In this document: in pieces, positions 1-5,397 of the stretch
Numbering within the stretch: position 1 is the stretch's first letter
How the letters are laid out: every line of letters starts with the position of its first letter
Assembly: GCA_934667065.1 (NCBI GenBank)
Contig: CAKULD010000001.1
Location: 145,105 to 209,104 of the forward strand
DNA: 64,000 nt
Direction: 5' to 3'
From: an uncultured Collinsella sp.
GTDB taxonomy: Bacteria; Actinomycetota; Coriobacteriia; Coriobacteriales; Coriobacteriaceae
Program-made: the position numbers and the translations under genes
Notes under the pieces: model-generated
Database searches by the model: none
What the model was told of the DNA's origin: nothing
What the model saw: only the letters and a program-made list of their open reading frames with translations

Positions 1-259
1 CGATCTGCGACACATCGGTGAGCGAGACCTCACAGGTGTCGTGGCCGTCAACCATGACGGAGCCAAAGAAGGTGCCGGTAAAGTGGTGGGGTACGGCTCC
101 CGACAGGCAGGCGGCAAGCGTGGATTTGCCTGCGCCCGAAGGCCCGATGATGCCGATAAAGTCTCCCTTGTTCACGTCGAGCGAGATGTGCTTAAGCGCC
201 TGCTCGGTCTGCGTGCCATAGGAGAACGAGACATCGTCGACGTTGATGATCGTTTCCAT
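1..259 (-). CDS. ABC/ECF-type transporter ATP-binding protein, N-terminal fragment (gene continues past the window edge)
   Basis: Absent from the ORF track because it is truncated. The reverse strand from ATG (comp. 257-259) reads METIINVDDVSFSYGTQTEQALKHISLDVNKGDFIGIIGPSGAGKSTLAACLSG..., with Walker A GPSGAGKST. It lies directly downstream of two S-component-like genes. Confidence 0.8.
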   Translation of the reverse strand, partial: METIINVDDVSFSYGTQTEQALKHISLDVNKGDFIGIIGPSGAGKSTLAACLSGAVPHHFTGTFFGSVMVDGHDTCEVSLTDVSQI

Positions 260-389
260 GGATACCTTTCATAGTCATCGGGGACGTTCTTACACGACGA
301 GTCGTCTATGAACGTCCCCAAAAGCTAGCTGTTTGGGACAGTCCTTAGTGACGGGGCCGCTAGCGCGCGGCCCCGTCCATCATATCAGG

Positions 390-941
390 CTATTTGTTGA
401 GCACCTTGCGCAGGGGGAAGAAGAGGGCCTGGACCACGACGGCGTTGAAGACGGCAGTGCCGAGCACAATGGGCACCTTGGCGAGCGCCGTGGGCAGCGC
501 GGCACCCATGATGACGGTGCCCAGGACGGCGAAGAGGGCACCCGAGACCAAGGTGGTGAGCAGGCCGGCGATGAAGGGGTTGAGCTTGCTGCCGCCGATG
601 TTGGACTTGACGAGCGCGGCCATGGTCAGCGCACCGGCGAGTTCGGTGACAAAGTTGAGGCCAGGGATCGACGTGGTGATTTGGATGACGGCGGCGGACA
701 GGATGCCAAAGATGGCGGCCTGGGCAAAGTTCGCCTGCGTGAGCGCGATGGCTAGGGCATAGGCGGCAATGATGAACTGCGGCTTGATGCCCGTTGCGGC
801 AAGCGCGTTGCCGACGGTCATGTTGAGGATAAAGCCGGCGGCAAGCAGGACGGCGAGTAGGACGAGCGAGGTGATATCAAGGATGCCCTTGTCGGAAGCG
901 GCGTTGGCGGAAATAGTACGAGCCTGGGTGTTGGTGGCCAT
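390..941 (-). CDS. TrpP-family (tryptophan-type) ECF transporter S component, paralog 1
   Basis: 183-aa polytopic membrane ORF with AAGGAG 6 nt upstream of the ATG. It shares the blocks LLAAGFILN, SAAVIQITT and TAVFNA with the ORF at 1150-1722. From memory, the layout resembles B. subtilis TrpP/YhaG. Confidence 0.7.
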   Translation of the reverse strand: MATNTQARTISANAASDKGILDITSLVLLAVLLAAGFILNMTVGNALAATGIKPQFIIAAYALAIALTQANFAQAAIFGILSAAVIQITTSIPGLNFVTELAGALTMAALVKSNIGGSKLNPFIAGLLTTLVSGALFAVLGTVIMGAALPTALAKVPIVLGTAVFNAVVVQALFFPLRKVLNK

Positions 942-1149
942 GATGTTCTCCTTAAGGTGGGATTTGAGATAAGAGTGTCCTAGACCCCCACGAAAGGGGT
1001 TAAATCGAAAAGGGGATTAATTTTGAATAATGGAGCACGGAGACGGCTTTGCGAGGGGCCCACGTTGGCGCGAAAGAGGAGCGAAGCGTACTTGGGTACG
1101 CGAGCGACGAATGAACGCCAAGATGGGGTGGCTCGTAAAGCCGAGTGGG

Positions 1150-1722
1150 TTAGTTGAGCTTCAGGGCCTTCTGGATGGGCAGGTAGAGGGCACCGACCAG
1201 AATGGCGTTAAAGACGGCGGTCATGGCGACGACGGGAAGCATGGCGGCGGCGAGCTCGCCCACCACGCCGAGCATGGCCATCTTGATGACCATGAAGATG
1301 ACGCCGGAGACAAAGGTGGTCACGAAGGTGGCGACAATAGCGACAGCGGGCTTAACCTGGCCCTTCTTGCCGGCGGCGTTGACGATGGCGGCCATGAGCA
1401 TGGCGGCGATGCCCTCGGCGGCAAAATCGATGAACGGCGAGGTGGTGGTGATCTGGATCACGGCGGCCGAGATAAGGCCGATGACGAGTGCCTGACCGAT
1501 GTTGGGGCGCACGACCAGGATGGTGAGGCAGAAGGCCGAGATGATGAACTCGGGGCTGATCATGCCGCCCGAGATACCCGAGATGGCCTTGCCGACGGTG
1601 AAGTTGAGGATAAAGCCGGCGGCAAGCAGAATGGCGAGCAGGACGAGGGCGCGGACGTCAAGTTTGCCGCGGTCGGCGGCCTGGACGGTGCGGGGCTGGG
1701 TGGCGGTGGTGTTCTGAGACAT
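1150..1722 (-). CDS. TrpP-family (tryptophan-type) ECF transporter S component, paralog 2
   Basis: 190-aa polytopic membrane ORF. The segment GGMISPEFII...LVIGLISAAVIQITT resembles the B. subtilis TrpP core GGMKPDMMLI...LVIGIVTGIISALTT (from memory). It is preceded by a Trp-codon leader ORF and a terminator. Confidence 0.7.
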   Translation of the reverse strand: MSQNTTATQPRTVQAADRGKLDVRALVLLAILLAAGFILNFTVGKAISGISGGMISPEFIISAFCLTILVVRPNIGQALVIGLISAAVIQITTTSPFIDFAAEGIAAMLMAAIVNAAGKKGQVKPAVAIVATFVTTFVSGVIFMVIKMAMLGVVGELAAAMLPVVAMTAVFNAILVGALYLPIQKALKLN

Positions 1723-1793
1723 GGTAAAGATCCTTTCGGAAGGGGAGTGTAAGAGAAAAGCGGAGGCGCGTGATGCGAATGCGATCGGGCTCG

Positions 1794-1829
1794 AGATAGA
1801 AAAAGGCCCCCGGTCGAAACCGGAGGCCT
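1794..1829 (-). terminator. Intrinsic terminator inside the 5' leader of the TrpP-type genes (attenuator)
   Basis: The minus-strand RNA forms an 11-bp stem AGGCCUCCGGU-UUCG-ACCGGGGGCCU (one U-G pair, UUCG tetraloop) followed by UUUUUCUAUCU. It sits between the leader ORF stop (1867) and the transporter start (1722). Confidence 0.8.
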
Positions 1830-1866
1830 TCCAATCACCTAGAGCGCAAAAACAGGCGTGAGGGAC

Positions 1867-1935
1867 TCACTGTCGACCGATCGTATTCGCATCACGCCAC
1901 CACCAGTTGTTGAGAGACTCCATCGTGTTCTTCAT
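1867..1935 (-). CDS. Leader peptide MKNTMESLNNWWWRDANTIGRQ with three consecutive Trp codons
   Basis: 22 codons plus TGA. The SD AAAGGAG (comp. 1944-1950) lies 8 nt upstream of the ATG (comp. 1933-1935). UGG UGG UGG is at comp. 1897-1905. The ORF is shorter than the 60-aa cut-off of the ORF track. Confidence 0.7.
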   Translation of the reverse strand: MKNTMESLNNWWWRDANTIGRQ

Positions 1936-1993
1936 GTTGGTGGCTCCTTTCGTGATGCCGTGGCGCGGTCGCACCTAGTTGCTGTTGCGCTGC

Positions 1994-2002
1994 ACTATAG
2001 CA
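1994..2002 (-). promoter_or_regulatory. Candidate extended -10 promoter element (TGCTATAGT) for the leader/TrpP operon
   Basis: Reverse complement of actatagca. It lies about 60 nt upstream of the leader ATG. The -35 is poor (TTCCCC). Confidence 0.4.
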
Positions 2003-2020
2003 CAGCAAAGTGTGTGCGGG

Positions 2021-2043
2021 GAAATCTTTTTTGAAAAGATTTC
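2021..2043. promoter_or_regulatory. Perfect AT-rich palindrome GAAATCTTTT-TTG-AAAAGATTTC
   Basis: 10-bp arms with a 3-nt centre. It lies between the C69 gene terminator and the -35 position of the candidate leader promoter, so it is either an operator or an auxiliary terminator. Confidence 0.35.
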
Positions 2044-2063
2044 AGCGATGTTTCCCGCCGGTC

Positions 2064-2099
2064 AAAAGGACGGGCGGGACGAACCGTGCCATCCCGCCC
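2064..2099 (-). terminator. Intrinsic terminator after the C69 peptidase gene
   Basis: The minus strand forms GGGCGGGA-loop-UCCCGCCC followed by GUCCUUUU, 15 nt after the stop codon. Confidence 0.65.
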
Positions 2100-2113
2100 G
2101 CACCAGTGAGGGA

Positions 2114-4072
2114 TTACTCCTTGTTGCGGCGATAGAGGATATAACCGCCTGCGGAGATGACGGCAACGCCAGCGATGGCGAATGCGGCCACCATGCGGCC
2201 ATCAAAACGATCGCCAGTGGTGGGCAGGCCGCCCTTGGTGTTCGTCTTATTGGTGGTTACCGTGGTCGTGGTGTTGTCCGACTTGCCGGGCTTCTCAGGC
2301 TTGGCAGCGGGCTGCTCGGGCTTAGCGGGCTGCTCAGGCTTCTCGGGGGTGCTGGGCTGTTCGGGCTTGCCGGGCTGATCCGGGGTGCCGGGCTGATCCG
2401 GGGTGACCGGGTCGGTGGCAAGGGCGTCCTTGGCGTAGGTGATGGACTCCTTGAGGCCGTTGGTCTCGGTGTTCAGATCACTCGGGGTGAAGCGTTCGTC
2501 AAAGTTTCCGGCCTTCTGATAGGCGCGCATCTCCTGGAGCAGGGCCTTGCACTTCTTGTAGGTGTTCTCGGTAGCAGCATTGCCGGCCTTGTTGGCCAGG
2601 GCGGTGCGGCCCTCGGTGGTCGTTTCGGCCAGCATGGCGGCGTCAACTTCCTTGTTCTGCTCGATGAGCTCATTCTGGAGCGCGTCGAGGTAGGCGCGGA
2701 CACCGACGCCAAGGGTGTCAGGGTTCTCAAAGCAGAGCGAGCTGATGTCCATGAGGACGTAGTTGATGGAGTTCTCCGGCTCCTCGTTGTACACGACGTC
2801 AGTCTGTTTGCAGTGATCGAAGGAGACGGTCTGGTCGCTGAAGTACGGGCTGACCTCAGTCATCAGAGCGGAGTACAGCGGGATGGCGACAGAGTACGCG
2901 GCACGGGAGAGCATCTCCCACTGGATGGTAGCGACTTCGGGATCATACCCGCGACGAATTTGGAAGAGATTGATCTCGGTGTTACGCTCGCTGCCGATGG
3001 CGTAGACGCCGTCAGTGTTGGCGTTAAGGCCAGGGACGCTTTCGCCGCGGTTGCCAAAGGCGCGAATCAGTTCAAAGGTGCTCCAACCAGACTTGCTAGG
3101 CTTGAAGAACAGGGGCTGGATTTCGCTGACCATAGCTCCCTTTTGGGTGGGTTTTCCTTCCTTCTCAACTGTGATAATTTCGTAATCCGTGCCTTCGGTC
3201 AGCGGATTTGCAAAATAATCGCGACCTTGCACATAGCGAGACCACTGGTGAACGCCGGAATCGGCGAGGCTTTCGCCATAGGTCTTGGCAACGTCGAACT
3301 TGCCGTCGGTGTACTCGGCAAAGCCCTTCTCCACAGGCATGGACTCGATGCCCTCGGAGTGGAGGCAATTCTTGGTGTCATTGAGGTCGACATCGTAGTT
3401 GAGGCTACCGATATTGGGGTTGACCGAGGCGACGTCGTCAGCGAGCTTCATGGCAATCCACTGATGGGCGGAAAGCGTGGCGAACAGCCAGGTCTCGTTG
3501 TTGTCGGCGATGATGATCTGGTCGTTGGTGCAGACGCCTTGATCGTCGATCAGGCTGCCGAGGAGCTCGACGCCCTCGCGGGCCGTGGCGCTCTCGCCCA
3601 GGATGATGCTGCCGTAGCTATATTCGCCCAGACCTACTTCCTCATCGATGGGGTCTGCTGCTTCGGCATCCTCGTTATAGGAAGTGCTCAGCGTGGCAGA
3701 GCAGGACACGCCCTTCTCGTTGATTCCGGCCTCGGAGTAGGCATCGGTGCGGCCATACCAGTTTGAGGGATGGTCACGTACATAGCTGTAGCGATAGGTG
3801 GGCTTGTTCGAGGTGTATTCAAAAGCAGATTCAACCGAGCTGTACGTAAAGCCAGCTTCGTGGGCAGGCTCGATGCCGAAGTGCTTGAGGTAGCGCTTGC
3901 CAAAGTCCTCGGCACGGCCATAGTACGTGTTGCCGTCTGCCGTAAGGTTTTTGCCCATGTACATCTGCGTGCAGGCGAGCGCAGAGGTCGGCATGGACAT
4001 GATGGTTGCAGCTCCAAATGCGAGGCCTATGCCAAGCTTTTTGAGCGCGTTGACGGGGTGAGTTTTCCTCAT
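2114..4072 (-). CDS. C69-family dipeptidase, secreted and LPXTG cell-wall anchored
   Basis: A signal peptide is followed by ALACTQMYMG (the C69 N-terminal Cys nucleophile context). A Pro-rich linker PDQPGTPDQPGKPEQPSTPEKPEQPAKPEQP precedes a C-terminal LPTTG, a hydrophobic stretch and RRNKE. I chose the MRK start (GGGAGGG SD); the ORF extends to 4087. Confidence 0.85.
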   Translation of the reverse strand: MRKTHPVNALKKLGIGLAFGAATIMSMPTSALACTQMYMGKNLTADGNTYYGRAEDFGKRYLKHFGIEPAHEAGFTYSSVESAFEYTSNKPTYRYSYVRDHPSNWYGRTDAYSEAGINEKGVSCSATLSTSYNEDAEAADPIDEEVGLGEYSYGSIILGESATAREGVELLGSLIDDQGVCTNDQIIIADNNETWLFATLSAHQWIAMKLADDVASVNPNIGSLNYDVDLNDTKNCLHSEGIESMPVEKGFAEYTDGKFDVAKTYGESLADSGVHQWSRYVQGRDYFANPLTEGTDYEIITVEKEGKPTQKGAMVSEIQPLFFKPSKSGWSTFELIRAFGNRGESVPGLNANTDGVYAIGSERNTEINLFQIRRGYDPEVATIQWEMLSRAAYSVAIPLYSALMTEVSPYFSDQTVSFDHCKQTDVVYNEEPENSINYVLMDISSLCFENPDTLGVGVRAYLDALQNELIEQNKEVDAAMLAETTTEGRTALANKAGNAATENTYKKCKALLQEMRAYQKAGNFDERFTPSDLNTETNGLKESITYAKDALATDPVTPDQPGTPDQPGKPEQPSTPEKPEQPAKPEQPAAKPEKPGKSDNTTTTVTTNKTNTKGGLPTTGDRFDGRMVAAFAIAGVAVISAGGYILYRRNKE

Positions 4073-4299
4073 ATTCCCTCCCAGCATGCGAAAGCCCTCT
4101 GTCGCCAGAGGGCTTCAGCCAATAAAGACACTCCCTTAGCGTAACGAATCGGAAACAATATTCATCTATGAAAAATGCTTACTCGATAAGCGTAATGAAA
4201 TATGCGATGAGCGGTTAAATATACTCAGTTTGTAGCTTTAGCCAAATAAAGACACCTGCAATTACTGCATCTGGATAAAGCGTCTGGAAATACCGAAAT

Positions 4300-4341
4300 G
4301 AAAAATCCCCCGCTGTTTGGCAAATGCATAAACAGCGGGGG
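4300..4341 (-). terminator. Intrinsic terminator after the lipid kinase / small-peptide operon
   Basis: The minus strand forms UCCCCCGCUGUUU-loop-AAACAGCGGGGGA followed by UUUUUCAUUUC. Confidence 0.75.
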
Positions 4342-4377
4342 AGACGATAATTGGATGAATATCATACCAATGTGGAG

Positions 4378-4470
4378 TTACTTCTTCCGGCGGTGAATCA
4401 CGTTAATCGCGTAGCCGACGAGCATGGCCAAAACGATGACGATAAAGCCGAGCAGGGGATTGTCGTTCAT
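4378..4470 (-). CDS. 30-aa single-TM peptide MNDNPLLGFIVIVLAMLVGYAINVIHRRKK
   Basis: The strong SD AGGAGGA overlaps the TAG stop of the upstream lipid kinase gene, with a 5-nt spacer to the ATG. The peptide has a hydrophobic core and a basic C-terminus and is followed by the terminator. It is below the ORF-track cut-off. Confidence 0.55.
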   Translation of the reverse strand: MNDNPLLGFIVIVLAMLVGYAINVIHRRKK

Positions 4471-4479
4471 GGGGTCCTC

Positions 4480-5397
4480 CTATTTACCAAGCGGTGAGAA
4501 TTCGTCGACGATCAGGTCGAGACATTGCGGAAGCGCGCGGGCGCCAAAGACGCCGGAGTTGCTGGAGATAATCTCGCCATCGAACTGCATGCCCAGCGAT
4601 GGTGTACAGGTAATCTTAGCTTCCTTGGTCTGGATGATCTTGAACTGCGGGCGACCGAGCACCTTGCCGGCGGGGTCGAGCGCAGCGGTGATCACGGTGG
4701 GCAGCAACTGCACGGTTTTTACGGGCTCGATGACCGCGATGTCGACCATGCCGTCGTTCATGCGACAGTCGGGGAACAGGTTGATGTCGTTTTGGATGAC
4801 CGAGGTGTTGCCTGCCATGCAGCAGATGCCGTCTAGCTCCTCGACAATGCCGTCATGCTCAATCGTAAAGTGCGCCACTGTGGGATTGGGCGTGGCAAGC
4901 GCCGACAGGAAGTAGGCGATCTCGCCGATGTCGTTTTTGGTGGGGGCGGCCTTCATCATAATCTCGGCATCGTAGCCCGAGCCGGCGATGATGATAAAGC
5001 CGTGGCGCTTCTCGTTGCCGTCCTCGTCGAGCCAAAAGAGCTCACCCATGTCGACCTTGACCGTGCGGCCTGCGCGGCAGGCCTTGGCGAGTGCCGCCGC
5101 CTCGGGGGCATTGCCGATGTTGTTGAAGAACAGGCATGCCGTGCCAGAGGGAAAGACGAGTGTGGGGACGCCGCATCCGCGCATCTGGTCGAGCACATTG
5201 GAGACGGTGCCGTCGCCACCCGAGACCACCACGCGATCGAACTCGCGCACGTCTGCCACGGCGTCTTCGGGCTCCATACCGTCGCCGATAAAGCGCATCA
5301 CGACCTCGTCGCCGCCCTGCGAGAGGGCGTGCGTGAATGCGAAGATTTCATCTGAGCTGGGGCCCGATGCCGGGTTGTGGATGATAAGGCAGCGCAT
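4480..5397 (-). CDS. Diacylglycerol/lipid kinase family protein (YegS/BmrU type)
   Basis: 305 aa. It has an N-terminal NPASG and the GGDGT motif (VVVSGGDGTVSNV). Confidence 0.85.
   Translation of the reverse strand: MRCLIIHNPASGPSSDEIFAFTHALSQGGDEVVMRFIGDGMEPEDAVADVREFDRVVVSGGDGTVSNVLDQMRGCGVPTLVFPSGTACLFFNNIGNAPEAAALAKACRAGRTVKVDMGELFWLDEDGNEKRHGFIIIAGSGYDAEIMMKAAPTKNDIGEIAYFLSALATPNPTVAHFTIEHDGIVEELDGICCMAGNTSVIQNDINLFPDCRMNDGMVDIAVIEPVKTVQLLPTVITAALDPAGKVLGRPQFKIIQTKEAKITCTPSLGMQFDGEIISSNSGVFGARALPQCLDLIVDEFSPLGK

Follow-up and report, generated by a model that had tools for sequence, protein, structure and literature searches.

In Escherichia coli trpL (RF00513), a short translated leader with tandem Trp codons is joined to a 1:2 hairpin, a 2:3 antiterminator and a 3:4 terminator, and in Bacillus subtilis the gene trpP is regulated by TRAP. 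Leaders with two or three UGG codons, G+C-rich terminators and antiterminators precede the trp biosynthetic operons and trpS of Corynebacterium and Streptomyces (PMC1262725). The TrpL peptide of C. glutamicum has three tandem Trp codons, and trpP of this species is a separate, leaderless transcript beside the trp operon (PMC11995493). Here we analyse a leader with three consecutive Trp codons and an intrinsic terminator in a 64-kb stretch of Collinsella DNA (contig CAKULD010000001.1; this whole stretch is termed the window), which lies directly before genes for TrpP-like S components of an energy-coupling factor (ECF) transporter. We conclude that the leader is very probably a ribosome-mediated tryptophan attenuator of the trpL type, which would control a putative ECF operon for tryptophan uptake. 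The mechanism is classical; what is new is the gene context, a transporter in Coriobacteriales, and the element works like trpL while standing outside the curated Trp_leader family. Our literature search found no paper on such a leader for a TrpP or ECF transporter or in Coriobacteriia, and we found no Rfam family for it. This agrees with a preliminary description of the locus, made from the letters of the DNA, whose author knew of no such leader on an ECF tryptophan S component in Coriobacteriia-like genomes.

The case for an attenuator rests on computation: the sequence elements, their conservation, the alternative pairings, an in silico dependence on ribosome position, and a link to T-box leaders in a sister order. 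From these we infer the response of termination and read-through to the supply of tryptophan. All leader elements are read on the minus strand of the window (Table 1), where every element and complementarity listed in the preliminary description was found. In the proposed mechanism, transcription would proceed from the extended -10 promoter, with a start about 7 nt downstream of TGCTATAGT, and translation of the 22-codon leader would go along with its synthesis. With ample Trp-tRNA, the ribosome would reach the UGA and cover region 2 (UCGGUCGACAGUGAGUCCC), the terminator would form, and transcription would end at ~1800. When charged tRNA-Trp is scarce, the ribosome would stall on UGG-UGG-UGG and cover segment A but not region 2. 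The free region 2 could then pair with the emerging 5′ arm of the terminator and subsequently with its loop and the beginning of its 3′ arm; with the terminator thus blocked, RNA polymerase would read into the transporter genes. In the absence of a ribosome, segment A is predicted to pair with segment D, and because this hairpin encloses region 2 in its loop, the antiterminator should be disfavoured as long as the leader is untranslated.

Table 1 Features of the leader, the operon and the T-box counterparts (positions refer to the window unless a locus is named)
Feature	Position	Strand	Basis or remark
Candidate extended -10 promoter, TGCTATAGT	1994-2002	-	Sequence reading and relatives
Shine-Dalgarno sequence AAAGGAG of the leader ORF, 8-nt spacer to ATG	1944-1950	-	Sequence reading
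Leader ORF, MKNTMESLNNWWWRDANTIGRQ and stop, 22 codons plus UGA; ATG at 1935, UGA 1869-1867	1867-1935	-	ORF reading, conservation
UGG UGG UGG, proposed stalling site	1897-1905	-	Sequence reading, conservation
Segment A (region 1), GGCGUGAUGCGAAUACGAUCGG, directly 3′ of the Trp codons	1877-1898	-	First 7 nt pair with segment D; 1897-1877 pair with region 5
Region 2, UCGGUCGACAGUGAGUCCCUCA, candidate antiterminator 5′ strand	1859-1880	-	Last three codons, stop and ~8-10 nt further; includes CGGUCGA
Segment D, UCACGCC, just 3′ of the stop	1855-1861	-	Partner of segment A; 1:2-type hairpin enclosing region 2
Region 3, GGAAGGCCUCCGGUUUCGACCGG, candidate antiterminator 3′ strand	1810-1832	-	Terminator 5′ arm, loop and first 5 nt of 3′ arm
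Intrinsic terminator, 11-bp G+C-rich stem, UUCG loop, U5	1800-1829	-	Folding, relatives
Region 5, CCGAUCGCAUUCGCAUCACGC, past the terminator; complementary to segment A over 21 nt with one A.C mismatch	1768-1788	-	Folding, duplex energy
First TrpP-like ECF S-component gene, 190 aa; Shine-Dalgarno sequence GAAAGGA 1737-1731	1150-1722	-	Pfam TrpP PF17099
Second TrpP-like paralogue, 183 aa, 46% identical to the first	390-941	-	Pfam TrpP PF17099
ECF ATPase gene start, runs off the window	1-256	-	ABC_tran, E = 6e-10
T-box leaders of Eggerthellaceae loci	L211 1062-1302; L212 1095-1345; L213 1056-1296; L214 1124-1377		RF00230

Loci 100% identical to the window are present in Collinsella metagenome-assembled genomes, and in 80 of 80 Collinsella genome loci the leader open reading frame (ORF) is kept with its three Trp codons (WWW) invariant, as is a strong hairpin with a U-run behind it. 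Seven distant orthologue lineages, among them Olsenella uli, Candidatus Olsenella avistercoris and Parafannyhessea umbonata, were fetched by their proteins (75-85% identity) and not by motif; all seven retain the Shine-Dalgarno sequence (SD), the short ORF, and a hairpin with a U-run. The conservation of ORF and Trp run, on which the preliminary description had staked its proposal, is thus borne out. A pattern scan of metagenome contigs, with a pattern that required AAC, yielded ~105 further leaders. Non-redundant leaders, defined as less than 93% identical to one another, number 34 and span Collinsella, Enorma (Enorma massiliensis), Olsenella (oral-taxon/phocaeensis type), Parafannyhessea and the Atopobiaceae/Olegusella type. 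Across the protein-first loci and the metagenome leaders alike, the order of Asn, WWW, exactly nine codons and a stop is fixed. The terminator of the window, AGGCCUCCGGU-UUCG-ACCGGGGGCCU at 1829-1804 with U5 to 1800 (-21.0 kcal/mol), begins 37 nt past the stop, as had been noted before. A single strong hairpin with a U-run occurs in 34 of 34 leaders (-15.6 to -28.9 kcal/mol, 26-37 nt past the stop), and its stem, in a structure-blind alignment, shows compensatory changes and 93% pairing. The Trp triplet by itself is not improbable, since TGGTGGTGG occurs once in the window against 0.5 occurrences expected; the weight lies in its conservation and context.

The N-terminal part of the leader peptide varies in both sequence and length. 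The residues that follow WWW also vary (RDANTIGRQ, RSLSAVGRS, HNSLSNGRS, RNFSSLGRW) except for G-R, which is encoded as GGU CGA in every lineage without even a synonymous change. This invariance at the nucleotide level points to a constraint on the RNA rather than on the peptide, and it bears on the alternative of an arrest peptide like TnaC, in which the nascent chain would sense free L-tryptophan in the ribosomal tunnel, instead of tRNA charging, and arrest at or near the stop. Such a peptide would suit the position of the Trp residues, 9-11 codons before the stop at a conserved fixed distance, and a ribosome held at the stop would mask region 2, favour termination and so bring about repression by Trp. 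However, the residues after WWW vary freely and the fixed G-R codons are accounted for by RNA pairing, three tandem UGG codons are a signature of sensing at the codon level, and TnaC systems use Rho-dependent termination and not a hairpin with a U-run. We consider this alternative highly improbable. As a separate observation, the codon before WWW (1906-1908, minus strand) is AAC, for Asn, in the protein-first lineages; the attenuator model gives no reason for this choice. Because the metagenome pattern demanded AAC, evidence for this codon is taken from the protein-first loci alone.

The antiterminator of the model links the stop-codon region to the terminator. Complementarity between CGGUCGA (1879-1873) and UCGACCG (1817-1811), proposed as the antiterminator in the preliminary description, is kept in 93.5% of cells among 31 diverse leaders, compared with 14-53% in slid controls. 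The pairing itself therefore stands, but as part of a larger antiterminator, namely as the base of a predicted helix of ~16 bp that would sequester the entire 5′ arm of the terminator. In the structure-blind alignment, this main helix (16 pairs) is 87% paired versus 29-57% when slid. The duplex of regions 2 and 3 has a mean energy of -23.8 kcal/mol across the leaders and is more stable than expected from dinucleotide shuffles (mean z = -3.0, median p = 0.007). Furthermore, a G in the terminator loop (column 103 of alignment A2) is invariant in 31 of 31 leaders; the G-A on the 3′ side of the loop does not vary, whereas the rest of the loop does. Pairing in the antiterminator, and it alone, accounts for this constancy of the loop G-A.

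The geometry of the ribosome agrees with the proposed switch. A ribosome at any of the three UGG codons would cover the RNA to at most roughly 1884-1878, so that segment A is within the covered stretch and region 2 is essentially free, whereas a ribosome at UGA would cover ~1881-1853 and with it segment D and almost the whole of region 2 (1880-1859). Equilibrium folding with masks for the ribosome cannot separate these states, and for this reason we folded the nascent RNA instead, using only the RNA downstream of a ribosome at WWW and with transcription advanced 5 nt into the 3′ arm of the terminator. Under these conditions, the stem-loop formed by regions 2 and 3 is the minimum free energy (MFE) structure in 31 of 31 leaders, with a mean of -27.2 kcal/mol versus -23.0 kcal/mol for the terminator hairpin. 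With the ribosome at WWW, region 2 holds region 3 with a computed probability of 0.76; the value falls to 0.47-0.57 without a ribosome and to 0.01 with the ribosome at the stop. In silico, the stop-codon ribosome thus masks the helix and the WWW ribosome frees it, as the preliminary description had anticipated.

A second helix, which that description had listed as competing, joins GGCGUGA at the start of segment A (1898-1892) to UCACGCC in segment D (1861-1855). It is present in the window and recurs with covariation elsewhere as GGCGCAG:CUGCGCC, GGCGCGA:UCGCGCC, GGCAUG:CAUGCC or GGCAG:CUGCC. In alignment A2, pairing of the two A:D helices extends to 93% and 80% of cells, and four pairs have changed on both sides. 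Taken together, A:D and the terminator are 89.6% paired versus 36-55% in slid controls; they contain seven compensatory pairs, and none of 500 shuffles reaches this result. Duplex energies of cognate and non-cognate A:D combinations are nearly equal (-12.3 versus -11.7 kcal/mol), because the GGCG:CGCC core is common to the types and U.G wobbles bridge them; the counts by alignment column given above tell more.

Invariant nucleotide blocks of this kind could also be binding sites of a protein, and the alternative follows that a trans-acting factor (a TRAP-like protein, uncharged tRNA or another antiterminator) acts on the leader RNA and that the ORF is incidental. TRAP control of B. subtilis trpP and the T-boxes of the Eggerthellaceae homologues, described below, would be in line with this. 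Yet region 2 and the two arms of the terminator pair three ways, which accounts for the blocks, and the ORF, its SD, its frame and WWW are conserved while the N-terminal sequence varies. In addition, no leader, T-box or riboswitch family of Rfam matched positions 1-4500 of the window at E ≤ 10 beyond chance level; specifically, neither the T-box model (RF00230) nor the Trp_leader covariance model (RF00513) gave a match. The sequence from 1700 to 2010 contains no run of three or more (G/U)AG repeats, as compared with the nine to eleven repeats, 2-3 nt apart, of a TRAP-type leader. A trans-acting factor as the actual regulator is, in our estimate, the least probable of the explanations discussed here.

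A tie to tryptophan that is independent of the leader comes from the Eggerthellaceae, in which the closest homologues of the S component of a divergent leader-bearing locus (L125) are found. Four Eggerthellaceae loci (L211-L214) lack a WWW ORF and have a T-box leader with a terminator in the same place. Their T-boxes align over the full model (E = 1e-11 to 1e-13) with scores of 61-69 bits, below the Rfam gathering score of 93, and the specifier position reads AAA-UGG, that is, Trp. The UGG specifier on homologous transporters indicates that the same family is wired to uncharged tRNA-Trp by a different sensor in a sister order, and it supports both the substrate assignment and the direction of regulation that the attenuator model predicts. 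Other amino-acid genes provide documented cases in which a leader peptide replaces a T-box from one taxon to another (PMC2965389, PMC9413887). We infer from the WWW leader, the UGG-specifier T-boxes and the TrpP match of the S components that the transporter putatively carries tryptophan.

This TrpP match is the only family match of the two S components in the window (23.5 and 23.9 bits, E = 4-5e-5). The first protein aligns over profile positions 2-168 of 169 (E = 5e-5), 11 of 11 aligned family members match PF17099 (best E = 3e-6), and a precomputed PF17099 match exists for many homologues. The suggestion in the preliminary description that both proteins would belong to PF17099 hence holds for the sole, end-to-end match, and not for the gathering score, to which we return below. 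A PDB sequence search with the family profile returned only marginal matches, including a folate S component at E = 0.43. Public records list the S-component proteins that we looked up as 'hypothetical protein'. Next in the operon of relatives come a 580-600-aa EcfA-A′ fusion (double ABC_tran) and then EcfT (CbiQ). Together with the ABC ATPase in the window, these genes indicate that the operon encodes a dedicated ECF transporter, whose S components, one or two in number, are TrpP-like; the layout with two paralogues also occurs in L083, L085 and L090. In two further loci, L148 (Olsenella oral-taxon/phocaeensis type) and L138 (Atopobiaceae/Olegusella type), the WWW leader stands directly before a protein of the second-paralogue type, an arrangement which ties the leader to more than one branch of the TrpP-like family.

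Terminator and transporter gene are 76 nt apart in the window, and in some relatives as many as ~170 nt, which leaves room for a promoter. The short ORF and its hairpin might accordingly be an independent small gene or small RNA without regulatory link to a transporter that is transcribed from its own downstream promoter, and the prediction of the terminator in all states at equilibrium would be compatible with this. In L113, L205, L160 and L183, however, the spacer measures just 31-44 nt including the SD, and our promoter scan called no promoter-like site in the spacer of the window. Moreover, the genes upstream differ by lineage (peptidase C69, MarR/DegV, diacylglycerol kinase, response regulator, dehydrogenase or helicase), but in two families of Coriobacteriales the leader always directly precedes the gene for the TrpP-like ECF S component. 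An independent gene would not explain why the alternative structure shares bases with the terminator and changes with the position of the ribosome, nor why a Trp T-box occupies the same place on homologous transporters. There is, we believe, very little chance that the leader is such an unlinked unit.

Several findings weigh against the attenuator model or its details. At equilibrium, the terminator wins in every ribosome state (probability 0.91-0.99), and the model consequently rests on co-transcriptional kinetics, as does that of E. coli trpL. The antiterminator of the window is among the weakest, its duplex reaching -19.0 kcal/mol and its stalled-state probability 0.48. When only the stop region and the 5′ arm were counted as antiterminator, the duplex did no better than shuffles (mean z = -0.8), and a signal above chance required inclusion of the loop together with 5 nt at the start of the 3′ arm. 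In the structure-blind alignment, antiterminator covariation exceeds that of shuffles only modestly (8/500; six pairs with double changes versus 4.4 expected). An alignment of 61 distinct sequences fitted by a covariance model shows double changes in 16 of 21 pairs, and 0 of 500 shuffles reach any of its measures, but this alignment was fitted to the structure, and two of its matches are weak and probably spurious. For the truncated leaders aligned by MAFFT, RNAalifold returned a consensus of only 4 bp, because the stems shift register between lineages. Suppression of the antiterminator by the A:D hairpin is partial in silico, as judged by the no-ribosome probabilities given above, which derive from folding of nested structures. 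With regard to the substrate, the TrpP scores of both window proteins fall below the Pfam gathering score of 27.2, and an NCBIfam search with the TrpP-like proteins gave no match. Finally, the model assigns no role to a conserved helix between segment A and region 5, beyond the terminator. We rate the support for the antiterminator as good but not overwhelming.

The A:5 helix had been pointed out in the preliminary description as a 21-nt complementarity and is indeed found: positions 1897-1877 are complementary to 1788-1768 with one A.C mismatch, and the helix is part of the MFE fold of the whole leader (-110.7 kcal/mol, z = -5.4). The duplex in the window amounts to -47 kcal/mol (z = -6.6), and several relatives have one of similar strength. 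We took the 10-mer from the last G of the third Trp codon and searched for its reverse complement, allowing at most one mismatch, in the cognate untranslated region (UTR). It is present in 12 of 31 lineages versus 1.6% of non-cognate combinations, with four different core sequences (GCGTGATGCG, GCGCGATTCG, GCATGACGCG and GCACAACTGG), and in the Collinsella type the helix displays a compensatory A-U/G-C exchange. About 60% of lineages lack A:5, among them the Olsenella type and all lineages with a short UTR (down to 31 nt). As it occurs in only ~40% of lineages, the helix is accessory and not the core of the switch.

Three functions for A:5 were considered and discarded. For control of transporter translation, accessibility of the ribosome-binding site (RBS) did not change consistently between states; for a second terminator, only the window and L086 have a U-run behind region 5; and for a C-rich Rho loading site in the UTR that is modulated by A:5, the same C>G bias runs throughout the coding sequence. 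Other targets of segment A in the window were limited to chance-level matches.

Since the 5′ strand of A:5 is the stretch that the stalled ribosome would cover, the helix would form only when tryptophan is plentiful. On this basis we conjecture that A:5 could serve as a fail-safe that inactivates leaky read-through RNA, either in cis or through the terminated leader in trans. It might then constitute a second ribosome-gated switch, in which a duplex of ~21 bp inactivates the read-through mRNA, for instance via RNase III; we regard this as possible but rather unlikely. If true, a single stalling event at WWW would control both termination and the fate of the mRNA. A stronger form of this idea holds that in Collinsella-type lineages the main or a second layer of control is post-transcriptional, with the A:5 duplex marking leaky read-through mRNA for cleavage and the stalled ribosome preventing it. 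The great strength of the duplex, its recurrence with four cores and compensatory changes, and the position of its 5′ strand exactly under a ribosome stalled at WWW speak for such a layer, and Sinorhizobium rnTrpL (PMC6614838) is a precedent for trans action by a terminated attenuator RNA. As A:5 is missing from most lineages, including every one with a short UTR, it cannot be the core mechanism, and neither the RBS accessibilities nor the rarity of the U-run lends it support. We give this form, too, a minor chance, well behind that of the attenuator model.

Upstream of the leader ORF, the candidate extended -10 of the preliminary description is present and its motif TGnTAnAGT is kept in L083, L086, L089 and L090, L087 having CCTATAGT there; in divergent relatives TGnTAnAGT and a following GCA.CGCAAC form a conserved block. 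A simple promoter consensus scan missed this -10 at 1994-2002 for want of a matching -35. The leader ATG is preceded in relatives by a conserved SD, GAAAGGAG or GAGAGGAG. Between SD and ATG, the spacer GCCACCA (1938-1944) is complementary to the Trp codons UGGUGGC, and an unconstrained fold pairs the two. Several relatives have GCCRCC in this spacer; as CACC before ATG is also common at transporter gene starts, the spacer may just be local start context. Immediately upstream of the leader SD, GCAUCACG (1951-1958, minus strand) forms a third complement of segment A (CGUGAUGC, 8 bp), which is not kept in L083, L086, L089 and L090.

Upstream of the leader lies the gene (2114-4087, minus strand) for a peptidase C69 of 657 aa, which has a Pro-rich linker and, as cell-wall anchor, an LPXTG motif. 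A hairpin and U-run of its own close this gene at 2063-2100 (minus strand; CGGGCGGGA...UCCCGCCCG UCCUUUUG), and hence the leader promoter would start a separate transcription unit. Within the operon, the 208-nt spacer between the paralogues (942-1149, minus strand) harbours a long, imperfect stem-loop of ~100 nt directly after the stop of the first gene. The 231 nt from 930 to 1160 fold with an MFE of -62.1 kcal/mol (z = -4.5); no U-run follows, so the structure is not an obvious terminator. Elsewhere, the spacer between paralogues is 72 nt (L083) or ~313 nt (L085) long.

The leader offers a handle for predicting the function of a widespread operon whose S components are annotated as hypothetical. 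Its hosts Collinsella, Enorma and Olsenella are gut and oral Actinobacteria, which compete with the host and with other microbes for tryptophan, and the leader points to a tryptophan-responsive ECF uptake system in them. In Actinobacteria, the range of leader-peptide attenuation would also grow beyond biosynthetic operons to include a transporter. The covariance model from this analysis could serve to annotate the element, and the long-range A:5 helix provides a concrete, testable lead. With respect to the evolution of sensors, the Eggerthellaceae would control one and the same transporter family with a Trp T-box and the Coriobacteriales with a Trp leader peptide, which extends the known interchange of sensors.

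The T-box(Trp) of Eggerthellaceae and TRAP/trpP of B. subtilis share with the Collinsella leader the gene family, the position upstream of the S-component gene and an intrinsic terminator; in both, shortage of charged tRNA-Trp or of Trp turns uptake on, as proposed here. They differ in the sensor, which is uncharged tRNA bound to RNA in the T-box and a Trp-activated protein in TRAP, whereas in Collinsella it would be the translating ribosome. Beyond the shared architecture, the leader resembles E. coli trpL in that region 2 would be hidden from pairing by a ribosome at the stop codon and released by a stall at the Trp codons, and in that the decision would be kinetic, the terminator being the more stable structure. 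There is no similarity in sequence or by covariance model, however; three Trp codons here compare with two in trpL, and transporter genes with biosynthetic enzymes. In Collinsella, region 2 contains the stop codon, the proposed antiterminator reaches into the terminator loop and 3′ arm, and many lineages possess an extra helix beyond the terminator. The histidine leader-peptide attenuators of Firmicutes (PMC9413887) are likewise lineage-restricted and were found by comparative genomics, but they concern a different amino acid, phylum and transporter class. For A:5, rnTrpL of Sinorhizobium meliloti (PMC6614838) is a possible analogy, as a terminated Trp-attenuator RNA with a free region able to pair with mRNA; rnTrpL acts in trans, while here the complement belongs to the leader's own transcription unit, directly past the terminator. 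The attenuators of Corynebacterium and Streptomyces, finally, come from the same phylum and share WWW leader peptides, G+C-rich terminators with U-tracts, and short three-way motifs conserved over long distances, which in Collinsella are CGGUC, CCGGU and GACCG. In this comparison of features, those attenuators stand before trp biosynthetic genes or trpS, and the Collinsella leader before an ECF transporter operon of Coriobacteriales.

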